Below the pieces are notes generated by a model. It did not search any database. It was not told the origin of the DNA and saw nothing but the letters and a program-made list of their open reading frames with translations. From an uncultured Prolixibacteraceae bacterium (lineage in GTDB: Bacteria > Bacteroidota > Bacteroidia > Bacteroidales > FEN-979): DNA of 64,000 nucleotides. Each line of letters opens with the position of its first letter. Position 1 is the first letter of the stretch. This document shows, one piece after another, positions 8,462-63,048 of this stretch. The DNA is taken from NCBI GenBank assembly GCA_964642545.1, contig CAZXQU010000001.1, positions 37,171 to 101,170 of the forward strand. The letters run 5' to 3'. The position numbers and the translations under genes were made by a program.

Positions 8462-9318
8462 CCATTGAATTTTGCAACCATCCAGTTGTTCTTAACCCGG
8501 GTTCCGGAGATTCTAAGTCCGTGCTTTCCTGCATAGGCTTCAACCGTAGGCAGATCTTCTGTATAAAACCCGCTTAGAAACAGCCCCCCCCCCTTTTTTA
8601 ATGCAGTTGCATAGGACGGAATCTGCTCGATCAAGGTATTTCGGTTGATATTTGCTAGTATCACGTCAAATTGTTCGAGTGGAATATCCGAAGCGTCTCC
8701 CCGAATAACGTCAATAGTACTTGTATTATTCTTTATCACATTCTCCAAGGCATTCTCAACAGCCCATTTATCATAATCGATCGCAACTACCCGGCCGGCC
8801 CCCATTTTGGAGGCCAGGATTGCCAGTACTCCGGTGCCGCAGCCCATATCAAGAACTGTTTTACCGATCACAACTTCATCCAGGAGGGATTCAATCATCA
8901 GGGAGGTCGTTTCATGATGGGCCGTGCCGAAAGACATCTTTGGTTCAATAACAATGTCAATTATGGATGCTGGATGCCGGATGCCGGATGCCGGATGAAA
9001 TGGAGCGCGGATATAGCATCTTCCAGCGACCAGAACCGGTTCATAAGAGCTTTCCCAGATCGCGTTCCAATTTTCTTCCGGCATCCTTGTAACACTCCAG
9101 AAAAGATCTTTCAGATTAGGATATTTATTCAGGACCTGATGAATTTCGCCTTCGTTAAAATCCATTTCCTTGATGTAGGCAAACAGTACTGTATCTTCTT
9201 CATTGAAACTATCAAATCCCACCTCCGACAGTTCAGCTATCAGAATGTCTGAATAGCCCTGAACAACAGGCTGAAATGCTATTTCAAGAAAAAGTGAGGA
9301 GGGTTGATGGCTGCCCAT
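8458..9318 (-). CDS. prmA: ribosomal protein L11 methyltransferase
   Basis: It has the SAM-binding motif DMGCGTGVLAI, preceded by PKMSFGTAHHETT, and a PrmA-like N-terminal domain. It contains an in-frame heptamer array (8965-8999). Confidence 0.9.
   Translation of the reverse strand: MGSHQPSSLFLEIAFQPVVQGYSDILIAELSEVGFDSFNEEDTVLFAYIKEMDFNEGEIHQVLNKYPNLKDLFWSVTRMPEENWNAIWESSYEPVLVAGRCYIRAPFHPASGIRHPASIIDIVIEPKMSFGTAHHETTSLMIESLLDEVVIGKTVLDMGCGTGVLAILASKMGAGRVVAIDYDKWAVENALENVIKNNTSTIDVIRGDASDIPLEQFDVILANINRNTLIEQIPSYATALKKGGGLFLSGFYTEDLPTVEAYAGKHGLRISGTRVKNNWMVAKFNG
8584..8599. repeat. homopolymer tract C10 T6 (G10 on the coding strand) inside prmA
   Basis: The plus strand reads cagCCCCCCCCCCTTTTTTaa. 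The coding strand reads tta aaa aag ggg ggg ggg ctg (LKKGGGL). Confidence 0.9.
8965..8999. repeat. heptamer array (GGATGCY) x5 inside prmA
   Basis: The units are ggatgct ggatgcc ggatgcc ggatgcc ggatgaa. On the coding strand they read in all three frames as HPASGIRHPAS. Confidence 0.95.
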
Positions 9319-9333
9319 ACCAATTCATCTGGT

Positions 9334-9341
9334 TATGTTTG
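9334..9341 (+). promoter_or_regulatory. -7 box for the DUF155 gene
   Basis: TATGTTTG lies directly back to back with the prmA box. Confidence 0.45.
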
Positions 9342-9349
9342 CAAAGGTA
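9342..9349 (-). promoter_or_regulatory. -7 box for prmA
   Basis: The minus strand reads TACCTTTG, 23 nt upstream of the ATG at 9318. Confidence 0.5.
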
Positions 9350-9404
9350 AGGAAAGAAATAGGAGTCGGAGCGATGAATTAAGGAATCGAATTTTCTGAT
9401 ATCT

Positions 9405-10193
9405 TTGAGCATGGAAACGATGAAAATTCTTGCCTACCAGATCAGTGAACAAATTGACCTGAAGAAGTTTGTTCAAACCTTTTCGGGCAAAGCTCCCCAG
9501 ATTGATTCGAACGAGTATTTCTCCCGAAATGAAAGAGATCAATACCTCTACCTTTTCAACTATGGCGTTGCCTGCTTTTTAGGGTATCAGGAGAGAGAGA
9601 GAGAAGAGTTGGTGAAACTGATCGAGCAATTCAGCACCAAAGACGTAGAGGGGGAAATCCAGGAGGAATACCACCTTCAAATCAAACCCGATGCCTTTGA
9701 AATTGGGTTCAACCATATTACAATCGGTGAACAGGATCCAGCTTCCATTAAACTCATCATGCTAAATATATCTCAATCCGTGGCCCTGAAATACTATTCG
9801 AACCAAACGGGTAAACTGCTGGAAGACATTCAGAACTATACGCATAAGCTGGAAAAATATGGAAGTTTCAAGATCAGCTGGTCTAAGCTGAAACGGTTTA
9901 TCGGGAGGGCCCTGAATATCAAAAACAGAATAGCTGACAACCTTTACATCTTCGACATGCCCCAGATAGCCTGGGACAATGAATACCTTCATCAAATTGA
10001 CCAGGGGATGAAAAAGGAGTTTCAGCTTCAGGGAAGGACAAGAAACATTCAGGATGACATCAAGATCATCACAGATAATCTCGAACTATTTACCAGCTTA
10101 ACCTTGCATAGAAAGGATGCTTTCCTGGAGTGGATCATCATCCTGTTAATCCTTATCGAGGTACTCAACCTTTTATTTGAAAAGCTGCTATAA
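9405..10193 (+). CDS. RMD1/DUF155 family protein
   Basis: The core YLYLFNYGVACFLGY and a C-terminal TM helix (WIIILLILIEVLNLLF) are typical of DUF155/Rmd1-like proteins. The start could instead be the ATG at 9411 or 9420. Confidence 0.7.
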   Translation: MSMETMKILAYQISEQIDLKKFVQTFSGKAPQIDSNEYFSRNERDQYLYLFNYGVACFLGYQEREREELVKLIEQFSTKDVEGEIQEEYHLQIKPDAFEIGFNHITIGEQDPASIKLIMLNISQSVALKYYSNQTGKLLEDIQNYTHKLEKYGSFKISWSKLKRFIGRALNIKNRIADNLYIFDMPQIAWDNEYLHQIDQGMKKEFQLQGRTRNIQDDIKIITDNLELFTSLTLHRKDAFLEWIIILLILIEVLNLLFEKLL

Positions 10194-10246
10194 GAAAATC
10201 CCTGGCAATGCCTTCATGGCATCTATGCGAAATTGGTTTTGCCGAG

Positions 10247-11023
10247 TTATGCCACGCTCCGGTTAATAGCAATTGTAACGATTTCAACAAACTCATCCGC
10301 TTTCAGTGAGGCTCCACCAATCAGGCCTCCATCCACGTCGGGTTGTGAAAACAGTTCAGATGCATTGGATGCGTTACAACTCCCTCCATAGAGGATGATA
10401 GCATCCTCGGCGACCCTCTCCCCATATTTTGAAAAGATAAGCTGTCGAATGTACGCATGCATCTCCTGGGCCTGGGCCGGAGACGCAGTAACACCAGTTC
10501 CGATAGCCCAAACCGGTTCGTAGGCTATGACAACCATGCGAAACTCCTTCTCTTCAAGATGGAAAAGAGACTCCTCAATCTGGGTTTTCGTAACATTAAA
10601 ATGGTTTCCTGCTTCCCGTTCCGGAAGTACTTCTCCACAGCAAAAGATCGGGGCTATGCCGAATCTAAGCGCTGAATCAACTTTCCTGGCAAGAAGGTCG
10701 TTTAATTCATTAAACTGTTTTCTCCGCTCCGAATGGCCAATAATGCAATATTCTACCTCCATGGATTTCAACATAGGAGCTGAAATTTCACCGGTAAATG
10801 CCCCGTAATCATGGTCATTGATATTCTGGGCTCCAACAGCTACATGGGTTTCATCTGTCAGGTCAAGTACCATCTCCAGATAGAGAGAGGGTGGGCAAAG
10901 TATCACTTCCACATTCGCAGTGTTCAACTTCTCAACCGCTTCTGTGATTTGAGCTGTCAGATCCTCAGCTTCCTGGAATGTTTTATTCATCTTCCAGTTG
11001 CCGGCAACAAGAAATTCTCTCAT
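10247..11023 (-). CDS. tpiA: triosephosphate isomerase
   Basis: Motifs AGNWKMN, IIGHSERR, AYEPVWAIGTG and GGASL are present. The start is trimmed to MREFLVAGNWKMN (ATG 11023); the ORF-track start at 11074 would overlap the upstream permease. Confidence 0.92.
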   Translation of the reverse strand: MREFLVAGNWKMNKTFQEAEDLTAQITEAVEKLNTANVEVILCPPSLYLEMVLDLTDETHVAVGAQNINDHDYGAFTGEISAPMLKSMEVEYCIIGHSERRKQFNELNDLLARKVDSALRFGIAPIFCCGEVLPEREAGNHFNVTKTQIEESLFHLEEKEFRMVVIAYEPVWAIGTGVTASPAQAQEMHAYIRQLIFSKYGERVAEDAIILYGGSCNASNASELFSQPDVDGGLIGGASLKADEFVEIVTIAINRSVA

Positions 11024-11049
11024 AGTTGGTATTGGTATTGTGGTTTGTG

Positions 11050-11057
11050 CAAAGATA
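11050..11057 (-). promoter_or_regulatory. -7 box for tpiA
   Basis: The minus strand reads TATCTTTG, 26 nt upstream of the ATG at 11023. This supports the trimmed tpiA start. Confidence 0.5.
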
Positions 11058-11070
11058 AGGAAATTGCGCA

Positions 11071-12150: not shown

Positions 12151-12153
12151 ATA

Positions 12154-12195
12154 GGTTAATAGATACTGGATAATGGATACTAGATACCAGCATCT
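12154..12195. repeat. degenerate heptamer array (RGATACT-like) x6 filling the permease/DoxX spacer
   Basis: The units are ggttaat agatact ggataat ggatact agatacc agcatct. The DoxX-gene stop (cta at 12194-12196) straddles the last unit. Confidence 0.8.
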
Positions 12196-13300
12196 AGTTA
12201 TTAATATATTTCTTACTGACCTGCTCCCAATCCGGGAAGTCGTTATAGTGCCATTTCTTGATCACCACTCCGTCCCACAGGAGAATCAATCCTGGATTTG
12301 AGCGGATCATGCTCTTCAGGATTACATCATCTGAGTTGTAGAACTCAAACTCAACGCCTGTTTCTTTCTGAAATGCAACAATTTCTTCCGGGAGGGTACT
12401 GGCAAGTCCGATGAACGAATAACCGGCATTGAAGGCAGACTCGTAAAGTGATTGAAGCTGACCCATTGCTTTTCGGTTAGCTTTATCCAGATTGTACACC
12501 ACGACAATGAAATGATACCCAGGAATATCCAGGATTTCATGCGTAAAATCATTCCCCAGAGTGTCTTCGATCATCAAGATCATCGCTCCCTCATTCGGGT
12601 CTTCAACACGCTGGCTAACGAATATCCATTCATCCAACCAGGTGGAGTCGTTCCATGGGTAGTTTGGCGTCAGGTACTCTTTATTCTCACCGGTATAGCG
12701 GTTTTTATATGTGACATAAAACTGGACGGCATCGTCATTGGATTTCAAAATATGACTTCCCTCTTTCCAATCCCTAAAGTCGATGACAGGCAAGTGCCAC
12801 AAGCAATAAAGGCTTAGTCCTGTAAATAGTACAGTAACGGAAATCAACGTCAGGATATCGCCCACTGGCTTCATCGTACTTCGGTATTTATTTCGCCAGA
12901 TGAATATTGGCACAACGATCGCCATCAGGACGACATTTTTAAGGAAGGTCTCTGTGTTGGTCATTTTAATGGCATCCCCAAAACAGCCGCAATCGGGAAC
13001 CAGATTATAGAATGCATCGAAAAAAGTCAGAATGGTAAAATAGGTCATCATGGGAAGCAATACCCAGGCAGTTTTTCGAATCCAAAGATTGAATAACAGG
13101 CTGACACCCAGGATAAATTCTACTACACAAAGAAAAATGGTAAGTGGCAACGCTAAATCGGTTGCCCAGCCCATATTAAAAGCCAGGAAATAATCATCCA
13201 TCCGGTAAACTGTTCCCAGAGGATCAATTCCTTTTACAAAGCCAGAAAAAATAAAGACAATGCCTACAATGATCCGAAACAGGGTCCTAACGAACTTCAT
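12194..13300 (-). CDS. DoxX/MauE-like membrane protein with a soluble C-terminal domain
   Basis: The N-terminal ~160 aa contain four TM helices (RIIVGIVFIFSGFVKGIDPLG..., a CGCFGD motif). The C-terminal ~200 aa are soluble. The family name is from memory. Confidence 0.6.
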   Translation of the reverse strand: MKFVRTLFRIIVGIVFIFSGFVKGIDPLGTVYRMDDYFLAFNMGWATDLALPLTIFLCVVEFILGVSLLFNLWIRKTAWVLLPMMTYFTILTFFDAFYNLVPDCGCFGDAIKMTNTETFLKNVVLMAIVVPIFIWRNKYRSTMKPVGDILTLISVTVLFTGLSLYCLWHLPVIDFRDWKEGSHILKSNDDAVQFYVTYKNRYTGENKEYLTPNYPWNDSTWLDEWIFVSQRVEDPNEGAMILMIEDTLGNDFTHEILDIPGYHFIVVVYNLDKANRKAMGQLQSLYESAFNAGYSFIGLASTLPEEIVAFQKETGVEFEFYNSDDVILKSMIRSNPGLILLWDGVVIKKWHYNDFPDWEQVSKKYINN

Positions 13301-13894: not shown

Positions 13895-13915
13895 GTATCC
13901 CATATCCCGTATCTT
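13895..13915. repeat. heptamer array (GTATCCC) x3
   Basis: The units are gtatccc atatccc gtatctt. The third unit runs into the folP -7 box TATCTTTG. Confidence 0.7.
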
Positions 13916-13917: not shown

Positions 13918-13922
13918 GAGCT

Positions 13923-13964
13923 AAATCCAAATCGAAAATCGAAAATCGCAAAACTAAAATCTTC
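13923..13964. repeat. heptamer array (AAATCGA-like) x6 forming the folP leader
   Basis: The units are aaatcca aatcgaa aatcgaa aatcgca aaactaa aatcttc. The array ends 1 nt before the folP ATG at 13966. Confidence 0.9.
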
Positions 13965-13965
13965 T

Positions 13966-14796
13966 ATGGTTCTCGCCTTTAACGGAAAACGGCTTGATAT
14001 CTCCTCCCCTGTGGTCATGGGGATATTAAATATTACACCCGATTCATTTTTTAATCAGGGGAATTGGGGGTCCGTTGACAAGCAACTCAGGCAAGTAGAA
14101 CAAATGCTTACAGATGGCGCTTCGATTATCGATATTGGGGCAATATCCACCCGCCCGGGAGCCTCACCGGTTACTAAAACGGAGGAGCTTAACCGGCTAG
14201 TACCATCACTGAAAGCCATCAGGCACCGGTTCCCTGAATGTTTCCTTTCGGTCGACACCTTTTTTCCAATGGTGGCACAGGAAGCAGTATCCCTCGGAGC
14301 CGATATGATCAATGATATCTACGGGGGAAGGTATGACGGCAAGATGTTCGAAATAATTGGGAAGTCAAATGTACCCTATATTTTGATGCATATGAAAGGG
14401 AAGCCCGACACCATGCAGATCAATCCGGAATACCAGGATATTGTTGCTGAGGTTGCCTATTTTTTCGACCACCAAGCACAGAAACTCAGGGAACTAGGTG
14501 CCAGCCAGATTGTCATTGACCCTGGCTTTGGCTTCGGAAAAACGATTGACCATAATTTTGAGTTGCTGGAGAGGCTTCAGGAGTTTGAGAGCCTTGGATT
14601 TCCTTTAGCAGTGGGAATTTCCAGAAAGTCGATGATCCGGAAAACACTCGGCATCCCAGCTGATGAAGCCCTCAACGGATCTACCGTACTGAATACTGTT
14701 GCACTGCTTAAAGGAGCCAACATCCTGAGGGTTCATGACGTAAAGGAGGCTATGGAAGCTGTGAAGTTGACTGAAGCAGTTGGGGGATTGAGGTAG
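13966..14796 (+). CDS. folP: dihydropteroate synthase
   Basis: Pterin-binding motifs GILNITPDSF, DIGAISTRPG, SVDT, INDI and DPGFGFGK are present. The start is trimmed to ATG 13966 (MVLAFNGKRLD...). Confidence 0.9.
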   Translation: MVLAFNGKRLDISSPVVMGILNITPDSFFNQGNWGSVDKQLRQVEQMLTDGASIIDIGAISTRPGASPVTKTEELNRLVPSLKAIRHRFPECFLSVDTFFPMVAQEAVSLGADMINDIYGGRYDGKMFEIIGKSNVPYILMHMKGKPDTMQINPEYQDIVAEVAYFFDHQAQKLRELGASQIVIDPGFGFGKTIDHNFELLERLQEFESLGFPLAVGISRKSMIRKTLGIPADEALNGSTVLNTVALLKGANILRVHDVKEAMEAVKLTEAVGGLR

Positions 14797-14815
14797 GAAT
14801 GTTATATTTACAGTT

Positions 14816-15607
14816 ATGATAATACTTGAAAGTCTATTTTCCATGCGGATTGTGGATGTCATCGACATCCTGCTCTTCGCTGTGCTGCTTTATGAGATTT
14901 ACAACATCGTAAAAGGAACTGCTGCAATAAAGATCTTCATTGGGATCATTGCCCTCTTCATTGTCTGGAAAATTGTAAGGGCGCTGCAGATGCCATTGCT
15001 CAGTGAAATCCTGGGTCAGTTCATCAGTGTTGGTGTGATTGCTCTTGTCGTCGTGTTCCAACCCGAAATCCGTCAATTCCTGTTGATGGTTGGGAACACC
15101 AGGATTATCAGAGGGCATCGTCGGAGAATTCTATTCTGGAAATACAATCTCAACACGGGTGTGAACCTCAATCTGGACAAAGTTGTGAAAGCCTGCAAAC
15201 GGATGGCCGACATGCACACAGGAGCATTGATCGTGATTGCCCGTGAAAATGAACTTACCCCTTATGTTGAGTCAGGACAAGCAGTCGATGCGAAAATCTC
15301 TGATCTTCTAATTGAAACAATCTTTTTTAAAAACAGCCCACTTCACGACGGTGCGCTGATCATCGTACACGAATCGATCAAAGCGGCACGCTGTATCCTT
15401 CCTGTCTCCAACAAACCTGATATTCCAGCAACCTGCGGTTTACGTCACAGAGCTGCAGTAGGGCTTACCGAGAAAACGGATGCCATTGCAATTATCGTCT
15501 CCGAGGAGAGAGGTGAAATATCCTATAGCCTTGAAGGGACTCTCTTTATGAACATCAAACCTGTTCATCTGAAAGAGATCCTGGAGGAGCTGTTGAAGGA
15601 GAAGTAA
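14816..15607 (+). CDS. cdaA: diadenylate cyclase CdaA (c-di-AMP synthase)
   Basis: Three N-terminal TM helices precede a DAC domain with the motifs TGALIVI, PLHDGALII, GLRHRAAVG and SEERGEIS. Confidence 0.88.
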   Translation: MIILESLFSMRIVDVIDILLFAVLLYEIYNIVKGTAAIKIFIGIIALFIVWKIVRALQMPLLSEILGQFISVGVIALVVVFQPEIRQFLLMVGNTRIIRGHRRRILFWKYNLNTGVNLNLDKVVKACKRMADMHTGALIVIARENELTPYVESGQAVDAKISDLLIETIFFKNSPLHDGALIIVHESIKAARCILPVSNKPDIPATCGLRHRAAVGLTEKTDAIAIIVSEERGEISYSLEGTLFMNIKPVHLKEILEELLKEK

Positions 15608-15624: not shown

Positions 15625-15652
15625 CAGGCATCAGGCATGTGACATCCGGCAT
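15625..15652. repeat. heptamer array (CAGGCAT-like) x4 between convergent cdaA and the TPR lipoprotein gene
   Basis: The units are caggcat caggcat gtgacat ccggcat. The array abuts the lipoprotein stop codon (cta at 15653-15655). Confidence 0.85.
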
Positions 15653-16174
15653 CTATTTTATCTCGCTTTGTTGAGCTTCAAACTCCTGGATCATCTGTTC
15701 AGGAGTTTTTCCCAGATTTCTTATTGATGCCTGGGCATCATCCACAAAGTCGTGATCGGGATAGGTATCGATAAAGAGCTGGTATGTCTCTCTGGCTTTG
15801 TCAATATCACCCATTACATTTTCCTGTACATATCCGGTAAAGAAAAGGCACAGAGGAGCTTTTTCAAAATCGGGATAGGATTCCCGGATTTGTTCAAAAA
15901 GAGCAATGGATCCCGGCCCATTTTGCAGGTTCATTGTCATGGAGGCTGCTTTGAAGAGATATACCGGTGAGAGTGAATCATCGGGATAGGTCCCAGCAAA
16001 ATCCCTGTACATCTGAATAAGGGAATCAGCTCCCACACGGGAGAAGCCACTTTCGGTGGTAAACATCCGATCCTCCATCGAGGAAATCTGATCTTCTGTC
16101 TGCGTTTTGGAGGGACCACAAGCGGAAATTAATCCGGTAAGAGCAAAAAGAATTATATACGATACCTTTTTCAT
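15653..16174 (-). CDS. TPR-like lipoprotein (YbgF-like fold)
   Basis: It has a lipoprotein signal (LTGLISAC) and TPR-like helical repeats (YPDDSLSPVYLFKAA..., YPDFEKAPLCLFFTGY..., YPDHDFVDDAQ). Confidence 0.6.
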   Translation of the reverse strand: MKKVSYIILFALTGLISACGPSKTQTEDQISSMEDRMFTTESGFSRVGADSLIQMYRDFAGTYPDDSLSPVYLFKAASMTMNLQNGPGSIALFEQIRESYPDFEKAPLCLFFTGYVQENVMGDIDKARETYQLFIDTYPDHDFVDDAQASIRNLGKTPEQMIQEFEAQQSEIK

Positions 16175-16200
16175 AGAGCTGTTATATTATATTGTCATCA

Positions 16201-16264
16201 TTTCCTAATTTTCTAATTTCCTATTTTCCTAATTTCCTAATTTCCTAATTTCCTAATTTCGTAT
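16201..16264. repeat. octamer array (TTTCCTAA) x8 between def and the TPR lipoprotein gene
   Basis: The units are tttcctaa ttttctaa tttcctat, then tttcctaa x4, then tttcgtat, in unbroken 8-nt phase. The last unit runs into the def stop codon (16264-16266). Confidence 0.95.
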
Positions 16265-16839
16265 TACCTCTTCCCCTTCTTCATTCCGGGGAAAATCATC
16301 TTATAGTGGACCTCTACATTCCCTTCTGCAATCTCTTTCAGCCGGCGCTTAAGTAGAATTTTCTTTAACGGGCTGATCCGCTCGGCCATCGTGATGCCAT
16401 CGATATGGTCATATTCGTGTTGGATAATCCGTGCCAGAATACCTTCATAACGCTCGTCATGTTCCTGAAAGTGTTCATCTAAGTAGCGAACGTGAATCAC
16501 CGATTTTCTCGAAATATCTTCATGAAGCCCCGGAAAACTCAGACATCCCTCGTTGTGGAGTCCCTCTTCACCCTCCTCGTTGTAAATCTCAGCATTGATG
16601 AAAACCTTTTTAAATCCATCCGCCTCAGGGTGTTGATGCTGAGAGAGGGCAGTTGCATCGATGACAAAAAGCCGAACCGAACGATTCACCTGCGGTGCAG
16701 CCAATCCAATGCCATCAGCATAGTACATCGTTTCCCACATATCGACCAGGAAATTATCAAACTCCGGGTAATTGGGATTGATCTCTTCAGCAAGTTTTTT
16801 CAGTACAGGATGTGGATATGCAACAATAGGAAGTAACAT
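16264..16839 (-). CDS. def: peptide deformylase
   Basis: The three deformylase motifs GIGLAAPQ, EGCLSFPG and HEYDH are present. Confidence 0.93.
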   Translation of the reverse strand: MLLPIVAYPHPVLKKLAEEINPNYPEFDNFLVDMWETMYYADGIGLAAPQVNRSVRLFVIDATALSQHQHPEADGFKKVFINAEIYNEEGEEGLHNEGCLSFPGLHEDISRKSVIHVRYLDEHFQEHDERYEGILARIIQHEYDHIDGITMAERISPLKKILLKRRLKEIAEGNVEVHYKMIFPGMKKGKR

Positions 16840-16867
16840 GGTTTCGTATTTCGTATTTCGTATTTCG
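16840..16867. repeat. heptamer array (TATTTCG) x4 filling the ruvX-def spacer
   Basis: The units are ggtttcg tatttcg tatttcg tatttcg. The whole 30-nt spacer between the def ATG (16839) and the ruvX stop (16870) is repeat. Confidence 0.95.
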
Positions 16868-16869
16868 TG

Positions 16870-17361: not shown

Positions 17362-18180
17362 ATGACAAAGGATATCAGATCTCTCATTGAGGCAGCCTGG
17401 AATGACCGGGAGATGCTGAAGCATGCGGATACACAACAGGTCATCAGGCTTGTCATCGATCTCCTTGACAAAGGGAAACTTCGGGTTGCAGAGTATACAG
17501 GGGAGGAATGGGTTACTTTCAAGTGGATAAAGAAAGCTGTTATCCTCTATTTCCTTATTCAGAAACTGGAAACTATCCAGGTGGATCCATTCGAATTCTT
17601 CGATAAAATTCCGTTAAAAAAAGATTATGGGAGGCTTGGTGTACGTGTTGTCCCTCCTGCAGTAGCTCGCTACGGCTCCTTCATCGCCGAGGGCGTAGTA
17701 ATGATGCCCTCCTATATTAATATTGGAGCTTACGTCGATAGCGGAACGATGGTTGACACTTGGGCAACCGTAGGTTCCTGCGCTCAGATAGGCAAAAACG
17801 TCCACCTCAGTGGAGGGGTTGGGATTGGTGGTGTTCTGGAACCTATTCAGGCAGCTCCCGTAATTGTGGAAGATGGTTGTTTTATCGGTTCACGCTCCAT
17901 AATTGTTGAGGGGGTTCGTATTGAACGGGAAGCGGTTTTGGGAGCCAATGTCGTTCTTACCTCCTCAACCCGGATCCTAGATGTATCGGGAAGTGAACCT
18001 GTTGAGAGGAGAGGATCTATTCCGGTGCGGTCAGTCGTGATACCCGGTTCTTATACAAAATCCTTCCCTGCCGGAGATTTCCAGGTAGCGTGTGCCCTGA
18101 TCATCGGGAAACGGAAGGCTTCGACTGACCTTAAAACATCGCTGAACCAGGCACTCAGAGAGTTCGACGTTCCGGTATGA
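17362..18180 (+). CDS. dapD: 2,3,4,5-tetrahydropyridine-2,6-dicarboxylate N-succinyltransferase
   Basis: 272 aa. The C-terminal half is a left-handed beta-helix of hexapeptide repeats (GAYVDSGTMVDTWATVGSCAQIGKNVHLSGGVGIGG...). The N-terminal helical domain is DapD-like. Confidence 0.85.
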   Translation: MTKDIRSLIEAAWNDREMLKHADTQQVIRLVIDLLDKGKLRVAEYTGEEWVTFKWIKKAVILYFLIQKLETIQVDPFEFFDKIPLKKDYGRLGVRVVPPAVARYGSFIAEGVVMMPSYINIGAYVDSGTMVDTWATVGSCAQIGKNVHLSGGVGIGGVLEPIQAAPVIVEDGCFIGSRSIIVEGVRIEREAVLGANVVLTSSTRILDVSGSEPVERRGSIPVRSVVIPGSYTKSFPAGDFQVACALIIGKRKASTDLKTSLNQALREFDVPV

Positions 18181-19151
18181 AAAAAATCTTGGTCATTCAA
18201 ACAGCCTCCATCGGAGATGTGATCCTGGCTACAGCTCTTCTGGAGAAGCTGCATCATTTCTATCCGGATGCCCGCATCGATTTCCTGGTAAAAAAAGACA
18301 TGCAATCCCTCTTCAACGGGCATCCATTTATTAACCGGTTGCTCATCTGGGATAAATCAGTAAAATATCGCAGTTTCTTCCGATTAATCAAGGACGTTCG
18401 ATCGGAACGATACGACTTTGCAATCAACATTCAGCGCTTCGCTTTAACCGGTATCCTGACTGCTCTTTCAGGTGCAAAAGCCACTATCGGATTCGATAAA
18501 AACCCCCTCTCATGGGCCTTCAGCAATAGGATACCGCATAAAGTTGGCAATGGGATTCATGAAACCCAACGCAATCAGAGGCTGATCGCTGAGATAACGG
18601 ATGAGAATGTGGAGAAGCCAAAGTTATATCCTGAGAAGATCCAGCATCCAGTATCAGGTATCTATTATACAATTTCCCCTGCATCCCTCTGGTTCACAAA
18701 ACAATATCCTGCCGAACGCTGGGCCGAACTGATCGGGCAGATGTCTGAGGAGGCAATGGTCTACTTGTTGGGATCGAAGGCAGATTTTGAACTCTGTGAA
18801 GAGATACGGGATACGGGATATGGGATACGCGGATCGCGAATCGTGAATCTCGCCGGCCAGCTTTCCCTCCTAGAATCAGCAGCCCTGATGCAGGGTGCGA
18901 GGATGAACTTTACCAACGATTCAGCACCAATGCATCTGGCTTCTGCTGTCAATGCCCCGGTTTCGGCAGTCTATTGTTCCACCACACCTGATTTTGGGTT
19001 TGGCCCCCTCTCCGATAATCGCGCGATTGTTGAGGTTCAGACGGAATTATCCTGCCGACCCTGTGGTTTACATGGTCGAACAAGTTGTCCGGAGGGCCAT
19101 TTCAGATGCGCTGTTGATATAAATATGGAAACCCTAAGATCCCGCCTTTGA
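18177..19151 (+). CDS. glycosyltransferase family 9 (heptosyltransferase-like)
   Basis: It has the N-terminus MKKILVIQTASIGDVILATALLEKL and the motif NDSAPMHLASA. Its ATG overlaps the dapD stop (ATGA). It contains an in-frame heptamer array (18801-18849). Confidence 0.8.
   Translation: MKKILVIQTASIGDVILATALLEKLHHFYPDARIDFLVKKDMQSLFNGHPFINRLLIWDKSVKYRSFFRLIKDVRSERYDFAINIQRFALTGILTALSGAKATIGFDKNPLSWAFSNRIPHKVGNGIHETQRNQRLIAEITDENVEKPKLYPEKIQHPVSGIYYTISPASLWFTKQYPAERWAELIGQMSEEAMVYLLGSKADFELCEEIRDTGYGIRGSRIVNLAGQLSLLESAALMQGARMNFTNDSAPMHLASAVNAPVSAVYCSTTPDFGFGPLSDNRAIVEVQTELSCRPCGLHGRTSCPEGHFRCAVDINMETLRSRL
18801..18849. repeat. morphing heptamer array x7 inside the GT9 gene
   Basis: The units are gagatac gggatac gggatat gggatac gcggatc gcgaatc gtgaatc. 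They encode EIRDTGYGIRGSRIVN in frame. Confidence 0.9.
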
Positions 19152-22235: not shown

Positions 22236-23081
22236 ATGAAACGACTTATAATCTATTTACTGCTCCTTGTCATTGTCGCAGCAGCCTGTACTGAACGGAT
22301 TGAGTTGAATCTGGATGAGACCTATACACGATTGGTGGTTGATGGTGACATATCGAATGATACGGGCAGCTACCAGGTTACCCTGAGCAAAACAGCCGAC
22401 TATTTCTACAACGAACCAGCTCCACGTGTTGTCAATGCTACCGTCAGTTTGAACAATGACTCAGATTCCTATCTCCTTCACGAAACTGAGCCAGGAATAT
22501 CCGGGATCTATGAGACCGATTCATCGTTTTATGGGATCATTGGAGAGACATATACCCTCGACATCGATCTGGATCAACCAATCGATAATGAGACCAATTA
22601 CACATCCTCGTGCAAGATGATGAATGTGGCCCGCCTTGATTCCATCCAGGTAGTATTTCAGACAGATTGGGGCCCTAAAGGCATCTGGGAGATCAGAGTT
22701 TTTGCCCAGGAACCCGGAGATGAAGTCAATTATTACATGTTCCGATACTACCGGAACGACACACTGATGAGCGATTCGATCTGGAAAGTAGAAATATCTG
22801 ATGATAAGTATATCAACGGCGGCTACATCAATGGACTTACAGCGATCTATATCAATAACGAAAATCCATGGGAGACATTTAAACCAGGCGATAAAGTAAC
22901 TCTCCAAATGTCGGGAATCACCAAAGAGTATTACGATTTTATTTACCAGGTGAAACTCTCGGGATTCAACATCCCTTTCTTTACCGGCCCTCCAGCCAAC
23001 GTTCAGGGCAATATAAGCAATGGGGGGATTGGGTTCTTCTCAGCTTATTCCAATACGTGGGGGAGTACGATTGTGAAATAG
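22236..23081 (+). CDS. DUF4249-like lipoprotein (TonB-dependent receptor partner)
   Basis: It has a lipoprotein signal (VAAAC) and lies 13 nt downstream of the TonB-dependent receptor. The family assignment is from the remembered TBDR+DUF4249 pairing and is not verified. Confidence 0.6.
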   Translation: MKRLIIYLLLLVIVAAACTERIELNLDETYTRLVVDGDISNDTGSYQVTLSKTADYFYNEPAPRVVNATVSLNNDSDSYLLHETEPGISGIYETDSSFYGIIGETYTLDIDLDQPIDNETNYTSSCKMMNVARLDSIQVVFQTDWGPKGIWEIRVFAQEPGDEVNYYMFRYYRNDTLMSDSIWKVEISDDKYINGGYINGLTAIYINNENPWETFKPGDKVTLQMSGITKEYYDFIYQVKLSGFNIPFFTGPPANVQGNISNGGIGFFSAYSNTWGSTIVK

Positions 23082-23112
23082 CGAAATAGCGAAATAGCGA
23101 AATAGCGAAAAT
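23073..23112. repeat. octamer array (GCGAAATA) x5 after the DUF4249 gene
   Basis: The units are gtgaaata, gcgaaata x3, gcgaaaat. The TAG stop codon (23079-23081) is formed across the unit 1/2 junction. Confidence 0.95.
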
Positions 23113-24519: not shown

Positions 24520-24556
24520 CCTACAGCCTAAAAGCCTAACAGCCTACAGCCTAATC
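24520..24556. repeat. 7/8-nt array (CCTACAG / CCTAACAG) x5 abutting the GT2 start codon
   Basis: The units are cctacag cctaaaag cctaacag cctacag cctaatc, followed immediately by the ATG at 24557. Confidence 0.9.
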
Positions 24557-27465: not shown

Positions 27466-27528
27466 CTGAAATACGAAAGATGAAATACGTATTTCCTAAT
27501 TTCCTAATTTCCTAATGACCAATGACCA
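27466..27528. repeat. composite repeat in the pyrK-pyrD spacer: TGAAATACG x2 (15 nt apart), ATTTCCTA x3, ATGACCA x2
   Basis: tgaaatacg occurs at 27466 and 27481. atttccta occurs three times at 27491-27514. atgacca occurs twice at 27515-27528. The second ATGACCA carries the pyrD start codon (27522). Confidence 0.9.
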
Positions 27529-28436
27529 ACCTTCAAGTAAATATCGCCGGACTCACCTTCAAAAATCCCGTTACCACGGCATCTGGCACATTCGGGTATG
27601 GAGATGAGTTCAGAGACTTCATGGATCTTGGTAAGATCGGAGGTATCTTTGTCAAAGCGGTAACTGGCTCCAACAGGGAGGGAAACGCCTATCCCCGTAT
27701 GGCTGAAACTCCGTCGGGGATGTTAAATTCGGTGGGTCTGCAAAACAAAGGCGTTGACCATTTCGTCAGAGAGATCTATCCCCGGATCAAAGATTTTGAC
27801 ACCCATATCATTGTCAATGTTTCAGGCTCCACACTAGAAGAATATGTGGAGGTAGCCGCCCGGATGAATGAACTGGAGAATGTATCTGCCATTGAGCTGA
27901 ACATTTCCTGCCCCAATGTCAAACAGGGCGGGATGGCTTTTGGAACCGTGCCGTCCATGTCGTCGGAAGTGACCCGGGCTGTGAGGGATGTCTACAAGGG
28001 GGTGCTGATGGTCAAACTTTCACCCAATGTCACCAGTATTATCGAAATCGCAAAGGCGGTGGCCGACGGTGGCGCAGATGTGTTGACACTCGTAAATACA
28101 CTCTTGGGAATGGCTATTGATGCCGATCGTCGTCGCCCTATCCTCTCCACTATTACAGGAGGACTCTCTGGTCCGGCCATCAAGCCTGTTGCCTTACGGA
28201 TGGTATGGCAGGTCCACAATGCTGTAAACCTGCCCGTAATTGGTCTTGGCGGTATCATGAACGCTACCGATGCCATTGAATTCATGCTAGCCGGCGCTTC
28301 TGCCATCCAGGTTGGAACTGCCAACTTCATCGATCCGGCAGTCTCCGTCAAAATTGTGGAAGGCATTGAAGCTTATATGCTGAAACACTGTATTACCGAC
28401 GTAAATGAGCTGATCGGTGGATTGCGGACTGATTAA
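27522..28436 (+). CDS. pyrD: dihydroorotate dehydrogenase 1B, catalytic subunit
   Basis: Motifs [14 protein letters not shown] (catalytic Cys loop), [10 protein letters not shown] and GLGGI are present. Confidence 0.92.
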
Positions 28437-28479
28437 TGTCAACATCTCTTTTTTTGCAAAAACTATTTATTCCTTCACT

Positions 28480-31056: not shown

Positions 31057-31057
31057 T

Positions 31058-31108
31058 CTGTAGAGACGGAGCATGCCTGTAGAGACGAGGCATGCCTCGT
31101 CTCTACAG
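31058..31108. terminator. perfect 32-nt palindrome preceded by a 19-nt direct copy of its left arm, between the convergent T9SS-cargo gene and murB
   Basis: 31077-31108 is CTGTAGAGACGAGG-CATG-CCTCGTCTCTACAG, a 14-bp perfect stem with a 4-nt loop. 31058-31076, CTGTAGAGACGGAGCATGC, repeats 31077-31095 with 17 of 19 matches. There is no flanking U-tract. The right arm contains the murB Leu-stop (CTGTAG on the minus strand). Confidence 0.6.
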
Positions 31109-33306: not shown

Positions 33307-33384
33307 ATTACGAATTACGAATTATGAATTATGAATTGAATATCAATGAATTGAAACCCGAAACCCGAAACCCGAAACTTGAAA
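33294..33384. repeat. heptamer-derived arrays spanning the whole GT4/GT spacer
   Basis: The units are gaatgag gaatgaa ttacgaa ttacgaa ttatgaa ttatgaa, then a degenerate bridge (ttgaatatcaatgaattgaaa), then cccgaaa x3 and cttgaaa. The upstream TGA (33304-33306) and the candidate TTG start (33379) both lie in units. Confidence 0.92.
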
Positions 33385-52158: not shown

Positions 52159-52207
52159 GGTGATAGGCGTGATGAAATCGTAATTCATAATTCGTAATTC
52201 GTAATTG
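52159..52207. repeat. morphing heptamer array x7 (core CGTAATT x4 at 52179-52206) upstream of miaA
   Basis: The units are ggtgata ggcgtga tgaaatc gtaattc ataattc gtaattc gtaattg, in constant 7-nt phase. The array ends 5 nt before the miaA ATG at 52213. Confidence 0.85.
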
Positions 52208-52212
52208 ATAAA

Positions 52213-57782: not shown

Positions 57783-57803
57783 CAGAAAAACCGAAAGCTG
57801 GAT

Positions 57804-57859
57804 CCCAGATCCCAGATCCCAGATCCCAAATCTCTAATCCCTAATCCCTAATCCCTGAT
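57804..57859. repeat. morphing heptamer array x8 (CCCAGAT to CCCTAAT) in the OsmC leader
   Basis: The units are cccagat x3, cccaaat, ctctaat, ccctaat x2, ccctgat. The array lies between the -7 box (57775-57782) and the ATG at 57865. Confidence 0.95.
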
Positions 57860-57864
57860 TCTTT

Positions 57865-58260: not shown

Positions 58261-58288
58261 GGCACAGGGCACAAGGCACAGGGCACAG
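58261..58288. repeat. heptamer array (GGCACAG) x4 starting immediately after the OsmC stop codon
   Basis: The units are ggcacag ggcacaa ggcacag ggcacag. The array is the left flank of the PLP-enzyme remnant. Confidence 0.92.
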
Positions 58289-58413
58289 GAGAATGCCATG
58301 AAAGTTGCCGAATACCTAGAAGCACATCCCAAAGTAGCATGGGTTAAGTACCCCGGGCATAACGTGGGATTCTGTGTTTTGGCTGTATCCCTTGGGGGAA
58401 TAGAGACCCTGAT
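58289..58413 (+). pseudogene. remnant of a Cys/Met-metabolism PLP enzyme (cystathionine gamma-synthase / methionine gamma-lyase / OAH sulfhydrylase family)
   Basis: The translation ENAMKVAEYLEAHPKVAWVKYPG...FCVLAVSLGGIETLIQYPAS matches two conserved C-terminal blocks of the family (..NA.KVAEFL..HP.V..V.YPGL and F..A.SLGG.ESLI.HPASMTH). About 40 aa between the blocks are missing, as are the whole N-terminal ~300 aa and the last ~40 aa. The remnant is flanked by heptamer arrays on both sides. Confidence 0.6.
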
Positions 58414-58448
58414 CCAGTATCCAGCATCCAGCATCTGGCATCCAGCAT
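58414..58448. repeat. heptamer array (CCAGCAT) x5, right flank of the PLP-enzyme remnant
   Basis: The units are ccagtat ccagcat ccagcat ctggcat ccagcat. They read as YPASSIWHPAS in the remnant frame. Confidence 0.92.
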
Positions 58449-58495
58449 CAAAAATATCGCGTATATTTGTCCGTTTGATACGTAAACTGATTCGG

Positions 58496-60796: not shown

Positions 60797-60828
60797 TCAC
60801 CGTTATATTGCGGTATCAGAATAAATAC

Positions 60829-60836
60829 TATTTTTG
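60829..60836 (+). promoter_or_regulatory. -7 box for the DUF349 gene
   Basis: TATTTTTG lies 71 nt upstream of the ATG at 60908. Confidence 0.45.
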
Positions 60837-60907
60837 CAATTGAAAACACGACTTACCGGCATCGTTCGGAACCTTCAGAGTATTATTTATATGACGTTTG
60901 TTAACTC

Positions 60908-62983
60908 ATGGAAAACAAAGAGCACACCAATCAGAATCCTGATCTGGAACAAAATCCAGTTCAGGAGGAGAATTCTTCACCTGTTGAATTAAAGGAAACA
61001 TCCACAGAGACCCCGGAAACAGTTCCGGCGGCAACTGATTCTACCGAAGAAAAACCTTCCCAACCAGAAACAACTGAGAATGAGACTGACACTCCAGTTG
61101 TACCGGCAGAAATTCCGACCGCTGCCGAAGAAGAGACATCAGAATCCATTCCTGAAGAGATAGCAGTGGACGAGCCGCAAGCTGTTGAAGAGGTCCCTCC
61201 TATTGATGAGCCCACTGAATCAGTGGAGGAGGAAACGCATGAAGATGAGGAGGATCTTCACCTTCAATTGACAGACGAAAACATCAACCAGTATAGCCAG
61301 GCTCAGCTTCTTGATCTTTTAGAGGTTGCTGTCGCCGAAGCCGATCTCAATGCCGTAAAGGCACGGATTGCCATGATTAAGATGGCTTTCCTGAAGAAAC
61401 GTGACGAATTGCATGAACCGGTTGATATAGATGAAGATAGGGACAACCCACCTGTAAAAAACAAGGAGCAAGACGAGTTAAATATCCGGTTTGAAGCCCT
61501 GTTTAGTGTTTACAAAGCCAACAAAGGGCGTTTCATGGCAGAGCAGGAGAAGCTTAAAAAAGAGAACCTGGAGCGAAAACGCCAGATTCTTGAAGAGCTG
61601 CGAAACCTGATCAGCTCTGACGAGACGCTTAAGAAAACATACGATGAGTTCAAAATCCTACAGGACCAGTGGAAAGAGGTTGGGATGGTGCCGAGAGGTG
61701 AAATCAACGATCTCTGGCAAAATTACCACTTCCTTGTTGAGAAATTTTTCGAAAAAGTCAAGCTGAATAAAGAGCTTAAAGACCTCGACCTGAGGAAGAA
61801 CCTCGAAGCCAAAATTGAACTCTGCGAAAAAACAGAAGAGTTGCTACTGGAGCCATCCGTCTTGAAGTCCTTCAAACAACTTCAGAAATACCATGACGAA
61901 TGGAAGGATATTGGGCCTGCTCCAACGGATAAAAAGGATGAGGTATGGGATCGCTTTAAGAACGCTACCGATAAAATCAATGAGCGTCGCCGCGAGTATT
62001 ATGCATCTCTTGAAGAAGAGCAAAACAACAACCTGGAGACCAAAAACGCGTTGTGCCAACAGGCCGAAGAGGTCTTGACGAATCGAAATGAGACGGTCAA
62101 AGAGTGGCAGGATCAAACGCTCAAAGTCAATGAACTCCTGAAGATATGGAAGAGTATAGGACCGGTTCCTCAAAAAAATAATGCTGAAATCTGGACAAGG
62201 TTCAAAGGGTGCCTTGATAGTTTTTTTGCCAGCAAAAAAGAGTTCTTCGATCGCGTGAAGGATCAGCAGATGCACAATTACAACATGAAAGTTGACCTCT
62301 GTGCCCAGGCTGAAGCCGTCAAGGGAAGCACCGACTGGAAAAAGAGCACCAATGAATTAATTCATCTGCAGGAGGAGTGGAAAAAAATTGGCCCCGTACC
62401 GCGTAAACACTCTGACAAGATCTGGAAACGGTTCCGTTCGGCCTGTGATGATTTTTTTAAGACCAAATCGGCTTACTTCGCCAACATCCATACCCATGAG
62501 GATGAGAATATGAAGGCGAAAGAGGAGCTTCTATCCAAGCTTAAAAGTCATCAGTTCACCGAAGATAAGAGCAAAAATCTCGATGACTTGAAAACCTTCC
62601 AACGAGAATGGACTCAAATTGGCCATGTCCCTTTTAAAGAGCGTGACCGCCTTCAAAATGAATTCCGTAAACTGGTGAATGAACATCTTGATAAACTTAA
62701 GATAAGTGAAGTTGAGATGACTGCCATCAGTTACCAATCGAAGATGGAGTCAATGATGAACGATCCCCAGTCCAAACGGATAATCATACGGGAGAAGGAA
62801 AACCTGTCAGCCAAGATCAGCAAGCTTCGTGAAGACATTAATCTCTGGGAAAATAATATCGGCTTCCTCGCCAATTCAAAAAACGCCAACATTCTTAAAG
62901 ATGAATTCGAAAAGAAGATTGACCTGGCTAAAAATGATCTGAAGGTGATGGAGGCGAAGGTTAAAATATTACGGCAGCAATAA
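60908..62983 (+). CDS. DUF349 repeat protein with an acidic disordered N-terminus
   Basis: At least five repeats have the form W(K/Q)xIGPVP...(IW/VW)xRF (e.g. WKEVGMVPRGEINDLWQNY, WKDIGPAPTDKKDEVWDRF, WKSIGPVPQKNNAEIWTRF, WKKIGPVPRKHSDKIWKRF, WTQIGHVPFKERDRLQNEF). The first ~110 aa are E/T/P-rich. Confidence 0.8.
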   Translation: MENKEHTNQNPDLEQNPVQEENSSPVELKETSTETPETVPAATDSTEEKPSQPETTENETDTPVVPAEIPTAAEEETSESIPEEIAVDEPQAVEEVPPIDEPTESVEEETHEDEEDLHLQLTDENINQYSQAQLLDLLEVAVAEADLNAVKARIAMIKMAFLKKRDELHEPVDIDEDRDNPPVKNKEQDELNIRFEALFSVYKANKGRFMAEQEKLKKENLERKRQILEELRNLISSDETLKKTYDEFKILQDQWKEVGMVPRGEINDLWQNYHFLVEKFFEKVKLNKELKDLDLRKNLEAKIELCEKTEELLLEPSVLKSFKQLQKYHDEWKDIGPAPTDKKDEVWDRFKNATDKINERRREYYASLEEEQNNNLETKNALCQQAEEVLTNRNETVKEWQDQTLKVNELLKIWKSIGPVPQKNNAEIWTRFKGCLDSFFASKKEFFDRVKDQQMHNYNMKVDLCAQAEAVKGSTDWKKSTNELIHLQEEWKKIGPVPRKHSDKIWKRFRSACDDFFKTKSAYFANIHTHEDENMKAKEELLSKLKSHQFTEDKSKNLDDLKTFQREWTQIGHVPFKERDRLQNEFRKLVNEHLDKLKISEVEMTAISYQSKMESMMNDPQSKRIIIREKENLSAKISKLREDINLWENNIGFLANSKNANILKDEFEKKIDLAKNDLKVMEAKVKILRQQ

Positions 62984-62985
62984 AG

Positions 62986-63048
62986 GACGTGAGACGTGGG
63001 ACGTGAGACGTGGGAAGTGAGACGTGAGACGTAAATCGTAAATCGAAC
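62986..63048. repeat. morphing heptamer array x9 (GACGTGR to ATCGTAA) after the DUF349 gene
   Basis: The units are gacgtga gacgtgg gacgtga gacgtgg gaagtga gacgtga gacgtaa atcgtaa atcgaac. The array starts 3 nt after the TAA at 62981-62983. Confidence 0.95.

Follow-up and report, generated by a model that had tools for sequence, protein, structure and literature searches.

What are the short tandem arrays that crowd the gene ends of a 64,000-nucleotide (nt) stretch of DNA from an uncultured Prolixibacteraceae bacterium (contig CAZXQU010000001.1; this whole stretch is the window below), and what brought them there? A preliminary description of the stretch had reported dense 7- to 8-nt repeats, likened them to the short tandemly repeated repetitive (STRR) sequences of cyanobacteria, and offered two readings, a slippage-driven repeat that gathers at gene ends or an element that is put to use. 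We find that the arrays are long simple-sequence repeats (SSRs), a kind already known of which this is a dense fresh example, and not a new type of element. The explanation that we favour, at a probability of roughly 0.6, is that they are born by replication slippage and filtered by selection to sites that tolerate changes of frame, which would make them a by-product at the DNA level and not a designed element. Whole-unit differences between strains, growth in place, and persistence of position with turnover of the units all speak for the first of the two original readings.

Arrays were called with Tandem Repeats Finder (TRF) and with a stricter custom detector. TRF returns about 20 tandem arrays in the window, mostly of 7-nt units and a few of 8-nt units, and it recovers every previously listed start to within a few bases save those at 13895 and 27466. 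The strict detector finds ten arrays of period 7 and three of period 8 in the window and none of periods 5, 6 or 9–12, whereas 100 third-order Markov simulations of the window gave no array at any period from 6 to 12; the 13 strict arrays are thus longer than chance, as long SSRs (units of 5–11 nt) are. For comparison with relatives, a protein-anchored search yielded 7 syntenic loci in species-representative genomes, 70–80% identical in DNA to the window and labelled as uncultured Prolixibacteraceae, Bacteroidales or Bacteroidota metagenome-assembled genomes (MAGs), and a second search yielded 80 metagenomic loci with def proteins from 87% down to 50% identity; individual loci carry L numbers below. 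The heptanucleotide class dominates in 200 kb of clade sequence (80 arrays of 7 nt, 17 of 8 nt, 3 of 9 nt and 2 of 10 nt), the median array there has 4.4 copies in 32 nt, and the density is about 0.3–0.5 arrays per kb.

To place the arrays, gene starts were refined by domain boundaries and orthologue alignments, and names were taken from Pfam annotation of the flanking open reading frames (ORFs). Of the 743 array bases, 594 (80%) fall in intergenic DNA, which comes to 2800 nt (4.4% of the window) and of which arrays occupy 21%. The crowding at gene boundaries that had first been described is confirmed as an enrichment, since 13 of 17 arrays lie no more than 4 nt from a boundary where 6.6 are expected from random placement in their own spacers (P ~6e-5), but it does not extend to the arrays at 8965 and 18801, which lie inside genes, or to that at 58412, which lies in a pseudogene remnant. 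As had been noticed, the stop codons of the DUF4249, GT4 and HAD genes lie inside arrays and that of def is touched by one; the DoxX/MauE stop is reached by degenerate units alone, the TRF array ending 7 nt short. The starts of pyrD, M23, GT2, miaA and folP lie within or against arrays, and what had been said of the pyrD, M23 and second glycosyltransferase starts was correct. The arrays are these:

8965–8997, minus strand: (GGATGCC)x4.7 inside the PrmA gene (8458–9318, minus strand); TRF, Pfam and protein alignment.
11024–11049, minus strand: hexamer run TTGGTA x2.5, the weakest array, just upstream of the likely tpiA ATG (11023) and downstream of the permease stop (11071).
12154–12196, minus strand: TAGATAC/TGGATAA units from the DoxX/MauE stop (12194) to the permease start (12150); TRF.
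13895–13913, no strand assigned: (GTATCCC)x2.7 in the divergent DUF1599/folP spacer, seen in the sequence and under the TRF cut-off.
13923–13961, plus strand: (AAATCGA)x4.7, ending 4 nt ahead of the likely folP ATG (13966); TRF.
15625–15653, no strand assigned: (CAGGCAT/CCGGCAT)x4.1 between the convergent stops of cdaA (15607) and the TPR gene (15653); TRF.
16200–16263, minus strand: (ATTTCCTA)x7.6, an 8-nt unit reading GAAATTAG on the sense strand, from the def stop (16264) to the TPR-gene start (16174).
16840–16869, minus strand: (TTTCGTA)x3.9, filling the spacer from the ruvX stop to the def start; TRF.
18801–18849, plus strand: (GATACGG)x4.4 grading into (CGCGAAT)x3.1, in frame in the GT9 glycosyltransferase gene (18177–19151).
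23073–23110, plus strand: (GAAATAGC)x4.5, an 8-nt unit that had been taken for a heptamer, with the DUF4249 stop in its first unit and its end 2 nt before the purB start.
24520–24554, plus strand: (ACAGCCTA)x4.1, ending 3 nt ahead of the GT2 start; TRF.
27466–27529, plus strand: a GAAATAC doublet (period 14), then (ATTTCCTA)x3.2, then (AATGACC)x2.3 holding the pyrD ATG (27522); TRF calls just the adjoining array at 27491, and where the inverse units meet a small palindrome results (fold z = -2.6).
33294–33337, plus strand: (GAATGAG/GAATTAC)x4.7, spanning the GT4 stop codon (33304–33306); TRF.
33351–33385, plus strand: (GAAACCC)x3.7, directly against the second glycosyltransferase gene's putative start (33379); TRF.
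40139–40182, minus strand: (CCAACTG/CCTACTG)x6.3, with the HAD-hydrolase stop (40175) inside it and the M23 peptidase start directly alongside; TRF.
52159–52211, plus strand: (TCGTAAT/TCATAAT)x4.4, ending 2 nt before the miaA ATG (52213); TRF.
57801–57856, plus strand: (GATCCCA)x4.6, which passes into (ATCCCTA)x4.9, in the 5' leader of OsmC; a promoter element of the TAnnTTTG type lies upstream.
58261–58289, plus strand: (GGCACAG)x4.1, starting 1 nt past the OsmC stop; TRF.
58412–58449, plus strand: (ATCCAGC)x5.4 at the end of the Cys/Met PLP enzyme pseudogene remnant, upstream of the patatin promoter.
62986–63045, plus strand: (GACGTGA)x6.7 then (CGTAAAT)x2.3, starting 3 nt past the DUF349 stop and upstream of aroC.

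Within genes the arrays occur solely as in-frame inserts, in the PrmA linker, in GT9 loops and in a loop of the Tricorn-like protease. The two intragenic arrays of the window lie away from gene boundaries; the 33 nt at 8965–8997 encode ASGIRHPAS in the PrmA linker ahead of the methyltransferase domain. Protein alignments place array-derived, length-variable inserts at the PrmA and GT9 sites in every clade member, with peptides such as PDAGYR, SGIRHxAS and EGRGSRVEGRG, whereas more distant GT9 homologues and outgroups align without the array-derived loop; the Tricorn loop of relatives is likewise array-derived and variable in length. The C-terminal tails of def (…GEEVIRN*, 16264–16290) and GT4 (…ENEE*, 33294–33306) are encoded by degenerate array units, and arrays therefore remodel protein C-termini. 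A further run, GATCCGG x2.9, lies inside aroC (63451–63470) and shows no alignment gap against orthologues. Insertion was considered for this run and for a repeat in a relative's miaA and was ruled out by the gap-free alignments; both are native coding sequence or proto-repeats, the aroC run possibly a proto-repeat within an intact coding sequence.

If slippage makes these arrays, close relatives should differ by whole units, and they do. Between near-identical strains (99.8–99.97% identity) differences are almost confined to arrays and come as whole-unit indels of 8, 14 and 56 nt:

L001 versus L008: 6 substitutions in 19 kb; the sole indel is one 8-nt GAAATAGC unit.
L098 versus L099: 15 substitutions in 20 kb; two GGACGAG units and a change in a second array.
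L100 versus L101: 30 substitutions in 16.5 kb; eight GAACGCA units.
L102 versus L103: 3 substitutions in 15.7 kb; no array change.

On pooled data, a change of array length is about 155 times as frequent as a substitution at a single site. Conspecific loci of another Bacteroidota lineage (L050, L054 and L055, 1% divergent) show no unit-length change in 4–5 arrays, which indicates that the instability is moderate and not extreme. Ten independent assemblies, made from other samples of the population to which the window belongs, agree with it exactly across the arrays they cover, at 57801, 58261, 58412 and 62986, except that L094 diverges inside the array at 58412; this agreement rules out extreme hypermutability as well as assembly artefact.

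Assembly artefacts had been named from the beginning as a finding that would refute the pattern. Some contigs do end at arrays, and in L001 an N-run scaffold gap at the cdaA|TPR array (10784–11017) has array content duplicated on both sides, a sign that arrays break assemblies; the conspecific L008 closes this gap with 93 nt. Base-for-base reproduction in ten assemblies made from different samples by different pipelines, together with orthologous arrays in eleven other species, refutes an artefact of assembly or sequencing, and the chance we leave for it is negligible. The same data bear on contingency loci, that is, hypermutable repeats that would switch the flanking genes by phase variation. 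Strains do vary by whole units, and a change of 7 or 8 nt would alter the frame within a gene or the spacing of promoter elements. The rate of length change, however, lies far below that of phase-variation loci, many arrays are degenerate, and the population samples agree at every covered array apart from the divergence of L094. Arrays are moreover found between cistrons, within leaders or as loops in frame; the spacers of promoter hexamers and 5' coding regions do not hold them, and the associated genes are housekeeping ones (tpiA, def, ruvX, purB, pyrD, folP, miaA). We consider a switching role very improbable.

One array can be traced to its origin. An intact gene for a Cys/Met PLP enzyme of 391–392 residues lies between OsmC and patatin in L098/L099 and L102/L103 (10399–11574 in L098, 10422–11600 in L102), and its conserved motif IQHPAS is encoded by ATCCAGCATCCAGC in L098 or ATCCAGCATCCGGC in L102, a native two-copy heptamer. 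In the window this gene is cut to a fragment (58298–58411) ending in (ATCCAGY)x5.4, whereas the co-occurring strain L094 has kept two coding copies with more of the gene behind them. Two copies in the intact genes and in L094 against 5.4 in the window mean that the array grew in place after coding constraint was lost. The gene was also lost in L100/L101, independently of the window species, and the gap there is occupied by about 20 GGACGTR units, a hairpin, 8–16 GAACGCA units and a 14-nt repeat.

How old are the arrays, and how far do they extend beyond this population? The comparison of strains and orthologous loci that had been proposed as a check returned, besides the whole-unit differences, arrays at the same junctions in eleven related species, with related or different units. 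All loci of at least 4 kb with a def identity of at least 76% hold 2.5–9 arrays of 7/8 nt per 10 kb. The syntenic outgroup L016 (66% identity, 16 shared genes) has no 7/8-nt arrays, and 18 of 32 more distant Bacteroidota loci of at least 10 kb are without arrays, while L038, L055, L077 and L083, and L025 among the shorter loci, represent array-rich unrelated lineages. The arrays are lineage-wide in this clade and patchy across the phylum.

Within the clade, co-transcribed junctions repeatedly hold arrays at the same place in different species, often with the same or nearly the same unit. At DUF4249|purB five species share the unit GAAATAGC; L001, L002, L006 and L008 all have it, and L004 has 22 copies of a two-substitution variant, GAGGTAGC, at that junction. 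GACGTRA followed by AAATCGW stands after DUF349 in three species (the DUF349|aroC composite is the same in L098/L099, where it shows the two-unit strain difference, and in L100, at x21), and CTAATCC-type units precede the OsmC ATG in three species, including L098 and L102. TCGTAAT units precede miaA across relatives, with x4 in L100, x8.7 in L102 and a single copy in L098.

Other junctions change freely. The purB|GT2 array of ACAGCCTA units reaches x6.4 in L002, and the same junction in L009 is only 4 nt long; the def|TPR-gene junction of relatives is a mosaic of AAGAGGT, AAGACGT and ACGAAAT units. The junction that follows OsmC lacks an array in L098; L102 has TTTCTAA units there, the window has GGCACAG and L100 has GGACGTR x20, and these unrelated units point to independent births. 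At folP|cdaA the window has no array but five relatives do, and there an 8-mer reaches as many as 17 copies. In L001 the DoxX|permease junction measures 3 nt, and the ruvX|def junction carries no array in L012 (-1 nt), L014 (2 nt) or L001 (13 nt), whereas L002 and L006 have GGTTTCG arrays there. Array-free junctions of 2–13 nt in intact operons show that the arrays are dispensable. Units are also more alike within an array than between orthologous arrays, which implies that local amplification is ongoing.

Junctions of relatives also carry repeats of other kinds. At the weak hexamer run upstream of tpiA, relatives have 9–10-nt arrays or an inserted gene. The tpiA|permease insertion of 545–590 nt, present in L008 (15913–16456), L001, L011 and L007 and not in the window, L002 or L009, contains an antisense 23S_rRNA_IVP (four-helix-bundle) gene between 7–10-nt arrays of AATGACG, GCAATGATGT (x7.5) and ATTGCCATGT. 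In L016, the DUF1599|folP spacer (14366–15120) holds about 930 nt of higher-order repeats (~117 nt) built of 10-nt units, TTAACGCAGA and GAATCAGCGA; a similar block lies in L064 at 4–634, and this repeat type is distinct from the heptamer arrays. Finally, L098 has at 2604–3439, where the spacer of the window is only 2 nt, a GGGCGGGTTTGGAACCCGCCCTTACC hairpin in three copies together with a GTCATTGCGAGGAGC...GCGACGAAGCAACC element, further small palindromic repeats in the same clade.

The units themselves raise the question whether the arrays share more than a mode of growth. That arrays morph unit by unit while keeping phase, as first observed, is directly visible in the sequence. The proposal that unit families are shared by unlinked loci is borne out: TTTCCTAA at 16200 and 27491 is an exact 8-mer match, and pairs of similar units exceed chance, both among heptamers of the window with at most one mismatch (7 versus 2.4–3.1 expected, P 0.009–0.04) and with at most two mismatches (41 versus 22–25 expected, P <= 0.006), although some of the matches first listed are imprecise. 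Among clade arrays 26 of 97 contain GGAT/ATCC, and a composite of GACGTRA, then CGTAAAT/ACGAAAT, then AACTGC follows DUF349 in the window and def in L013.

A shared vocabulary would be expected of binding platforms for a specific nucleic-acid-binding protein (S1-, cold-shock- or CsrA-like) that governs a post-transcriptional regulon, as has been proposed for the TAACTGA repeats of Beggiatoaceae. The footprint of a single OB-fold domain matches a register of 7–8 nt. The same argument for heptamer repeats was made by MacGregor 2015 (PMC4679880). The recurrence of a limited set of unit families at unlinked loci agrees with such platforms, as does the presence in the window of a cold-shock domain (CSD) gene (1856–2047, plus strand, 63 residues, absent from the 90-aa ORF list), though such genes are ubiquitous. 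Yet about 100 clade arrays comprise at least 50 distinct unit classes with no common core, orientation is weakly constrained, units turn over at the same junction between species, and the flanking genes have unrelated housekeeping functions. Platforms of this kind are improbable.

Orientation and RNA structure bear on another use, that of generic junction modules: unstructured, A-rich, stop-containing spacers and leaders, born by slippage and kept by selection, that would uncouple or re-couple the translation of neighbouring cistrons or serve as leaders for the Shine-Dalgarno-independent initiation of Bacteroidota. Array ends do lie 0–4 nt from start codons above chance, several units set TAA or TAG right before the ATG, and both position and unit can persist, as with CTAATCC before OsmC and GAAATAGC at DUF4249|purB. 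The sense strand tends to be A-rich: 34 of 48 co-directional arrays are purine-rich on it (mean 0.60 versus 0.52 for genes), and by unit class A exceeds T in 32 versus 15 (P = 0.02), with purine-rich sense strands in 31 versus 18 (P = 0.09). A sense-strand excess of G over C, expected from avoidance of Rho-loading sites, is not significant (25 versus 21 unit classes), and stop codons are not enriched in sense over antisense units, as a frame-clearing role would require (27 versus 20 of 48). Most array spacers lack structure, but array-free spacers are just as unstructured, with fold z of about 0 to +2 in both. Orientation is constrained only weakly, and ATTTCCTA occurs in both orientations relative to transcription, at 16200 and 27491. 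Several species, moreover, have array-free 2–13-nt junctions in the same operon, and repeats are found too within proteins, where convergent genes end and upstream of promoters, sites at which no such role can apply. Selection for modules of this kind is possible, but we judge it unlikely.

Structure does appear where arrays are paired in inverse orientation. The DoxX|permease junction consists of such a pair and forms a long hairpin in L002 (z = -9.0), L005 (-4.5), L011 (-3.5) and L014 (-2.6), with a reduced version in the window (z = -2.5); its arms are built of different units in different species (CTGGATA, CCTGGAT, CCGGAAT, CAGATGY), and the first GT9 insert has a comparable two-armed layout. 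[quoted passage not shown] The occurrence of the GACGTRA, AAATCGW, AACTGC composite at unlinked loci in different genomes and the in-frame inserts in three proteins, which recall the Rickettsia element, point the same way. Constant element sequence, terminal inverted repeats and target duplications are all absent, however, the arrays being open-ended and variable in unit, and most are direct repeats in a single orientation that are unable to fold. The array at 58412 grew in place out of host coding sequence, strains differ by whole units and not by presence or absence of an element, and no transposase or RAYT-like gene was found among the Pfam-scanned genes that adjoin arrays. We therefore hold mobility to be highly improbable.

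Strand slippage, unusually active in this Prolixibacteraceae-like lineage and filtered by selection, would account for most of these observations in the following way. A chance two-copy proto-repeat, or the terminal or initial codons of a gene, would be duplicated; a duplicated segment that contains the stop or start leaves the protein unchanged, which is why terminal codons would so often form the first unit. The run would then grow and shrink by whole units through further slippage, and a point mutation in one unit would be amplified locally, giving the phase-keeping morphing and the concerted evolution within arrays. Units of 7 and 8 nt are not multiples of three and would be purged from reading frames, save in linkers or loops that tolerate them and where their net length is divisible by three. 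In a genome with about 4% intergenic DNA the survivors would gather at stop codons, at start codons and within 5' leaders, and would lengthen otherwise tight junctions. Weak selection on the transcript, for an A-rich sense strand free of stable structure before the start, would sort the surviving units and orientations, and this would explain both the A-rich sense bias and the exclusion of arrays from promoter spacers. Some inverted pairs form hairpins and may have been co-opted. We infer slippage, the selective filter and the cause of the preference for 7–8 nt from the patterns that we observe.

Several observations weigh against this explanation. Arrays adjoin gene boundaries more closely than random placement in their own spacers predicts, and slippage leaves unexplained why this lineage and patchy others are affected while the syntenic L016 has no arrays. 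Persistence at the same junction across species that are 70–80% identical is long for neutral DNA in a compact genome; it may reflect selection for retention, although the anchoring of first units in conserved terminal codons and self-renewing slippage could also suffice. Unit families (GACGTRA then AAATCGW, GGATGCC-type units, TTTCCTAA) recur at unlinked loci and in different species beyond chance, which purely local slippage does not predict, and inverted array pairs stay complementary while their units change among species. Persistence, shared vocabulary and co-varying arms, which pure local slippage does not explain, keep the reading as a used element alive. In its fullest form the arrays would be a maintained junction system, messenger RNA platforms for an OB-fold (S1- or cold-shock-like) protein at junctions without Shine-Dalgarno sites, where they would organise termination and re-initiation, with the inverted pairs as processing or attenuation hairpins. 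We regard such a system as doubtful; were it real, the persistence, the limited vocabulary and the co-varying arms would reflect selection.

It had been proposed that arrays replace classical terminators in compact operons, which the window does not bear out: the cold-shock (csp) gene is followed at ~2066–2100 by a canonical intrinsic terminator, a GGCGACCCTCGGGCCGCC hairpin with a T-run, and most arrays lie inside operons or in 5' leaders. Between the convergent genes 28417–31056 (plus strand) and 31103–32116 (minus strand), a perfect palindrome at 31057–31102 with a 14-bp stem, CTGTAGAGACGAGG-CATG-CCTCGTCTCTACAG (RNA fold z = -7.8), has a partial copy of its left arm, in direct orientation, ahead of it and looks like a bidirectional terminator or a REP-like element. 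Spacers that bear TAnnTTTG promoters (ruvX|dapD, GT9|sua5, patatin|DUF349, gcvT|epimerase) are conserved in sequence and free of arrays. Scans of 60 kb for sigma-70 promoters and simple terminators gave counts at or under the shuffled expectation and are uninformative for a Bacteroidota genome. The G+C content of the window is 44–45%, with no GC-skew switch across it; a tRNA/tmRNA scan of the window and a search of the whole of it with Rfam covariance models at the gathering threshold gave no match. The genes named by Pfam, which bear out the names first given and add further ones, comprise PrmA, tpiA, ABC permease, MauE/DoxX, DUF1599, folP, cdaA, def, ruvX, dapD, GT9, DUF4249, purB, pyrK/pyrD, GT4, HAD, M23, miaA, the Tricorn-like protease, OsmC, patatin, DUF349 and aroC.

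The lineage offers an unusually dense natural data set for the old question of what causes heptanucleotide repeats and what, if anything, they do. Orthologous junctions bear arrays in many species, conspecific strains are set apart by whole units, and a series of lake metagenomes resamples the same population; with these and an example of birth in hand, rates of birth, growth and loss become measurable, and a clean test is possible of whether retention exceeds the neutral expectation. The arrays also have practical consequences: longest-ORF starts run through them and distort gene calls, they break metagenome assemblies, and they add low-complexity loops to PrmA and GT9, while for strain typing they are good markers.

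How do the arrays compare with known systems? STRR sequences are short tandem repeats of heterocystous cyanobacteria (Calothrix/Nostoc) that fall into three heptanucleotide families and have no agreed function; heptanucleotide tandem repeats were described in cyanobacteria in 1990, and their cause and possible function have been open since. The arrays of the window resemble them as tandem heptanucleotides of several families per genome at many dispersed, mostly intergenic loci, and the original label of STRR-like is apt. They differ in belonging to another phylum, in having 8-nt units, in-frame coding inserts and a far larger unit vocabulary, and in their host, which is no heterocystous cyanobacterium: the nearest genomes are Prolixibacteraceae/Bacteroidales MAGs and the promoters are of the Bacteroidota TAnnTTTG type. 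Of the STRR1-3 units (CCCCAGT, TTGGTCA, CAACAGT), the only traces are one hit in L102 and, at 27514, AATGACC in 2.3 copies, which is TTGGTCA in reverse complement. Phase-variable SSR contingency loci of Haemophilus and Moraxella, which lie in promoter spacers or 5' coding sequence, are associated with genes for surface or restriction-modification functions and have a mutability higher by orders of magnitude, likewise change by whole units through slippage, but their switching placement, gene associations and high mutability are not found here. Rickettsia palindromic elements and REP-type palindromes are discrete elements with a consensus sequence; the likeness lies in short repeats in frame in proteins, at gene 3' ends in operons, and as hairpin-forming inverted pairs, and the difference in that the arrays here are open-ended and have no fixed element.

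Heptamers have also been reported right upstream of genes. MacGregor 2015 (PMC4679880) described TAACTGA arrays just upstream of starts in marine Beggiatoaceae, some cyanobacteria and five Bacteroidetes, found relatives without the repeats and contigs that ended in them, and noted 'other heptamer direct repeats' in spacers of Gramella, Aequorivita and Elizabethkingia, for which no function was given. The earlier statement that nothing had been described for Bacteroidota is thus nearly right, since our literature search found no dedicated description of such arrays for the phylum beyond this mention of heptamer repeats in five Bacteroidetes. Both systems place heptamers right upstream of starts in genomes that seldom use Shine-Dalgarno sites; there, however, a single unit with a strong forward bias suggests a regulon, whereas here there are many units with a weak bias, and tandem TAACTGA occurs neither in the window nor in any clade locus.

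The anatomy here is also that of the GGGNATC heptamers of Xanthomonas and the GGGGA(C/T)T heptamers of Nostoc (Rehm et al. 2015, PMC4692102). Those repeats are 89–93% intergenic, lie within tens of nt of ORF ends and mostly between co-oriented genes, occupy the same gene pairs in related species with extensive variation in length and sequence, and occur on both strands, with some inverted pairs and a few intragenic copies. The arrays here share their intergenic position near ORF ends, the use of the same junctions and the variation in length. One G-rich unit capable of forming a G-quadruplex dominates there, whereas units here are diverse and mostly without GGG; a G-quadruplex-type tract pattern occurs in a single array of the window (57804–57827). 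The published units TAACTGA, STRR1-3, GGGAATC and GGGGAYT are essentially absent from the clade loci. According to Mrázek et al. 2007, as cited in PMC4679880 and PMC4692102, heptanucleotides are the commonest long-SSR class in most prokaryotes and have a sporadic phylogeny, and polymerase slippage was proposed as the cause of long SSRs. The arrays of this lineage match long SSRs of 5–11 nt, as these accounts present them, in the dominance of heptamers, the sporadic distribution, a length beyond chance and the keeping of units that are not multiples of three out of coding sequence; they stand apart in that the ten richest genomes listed there include no Bacteroidota, and in their very high density.

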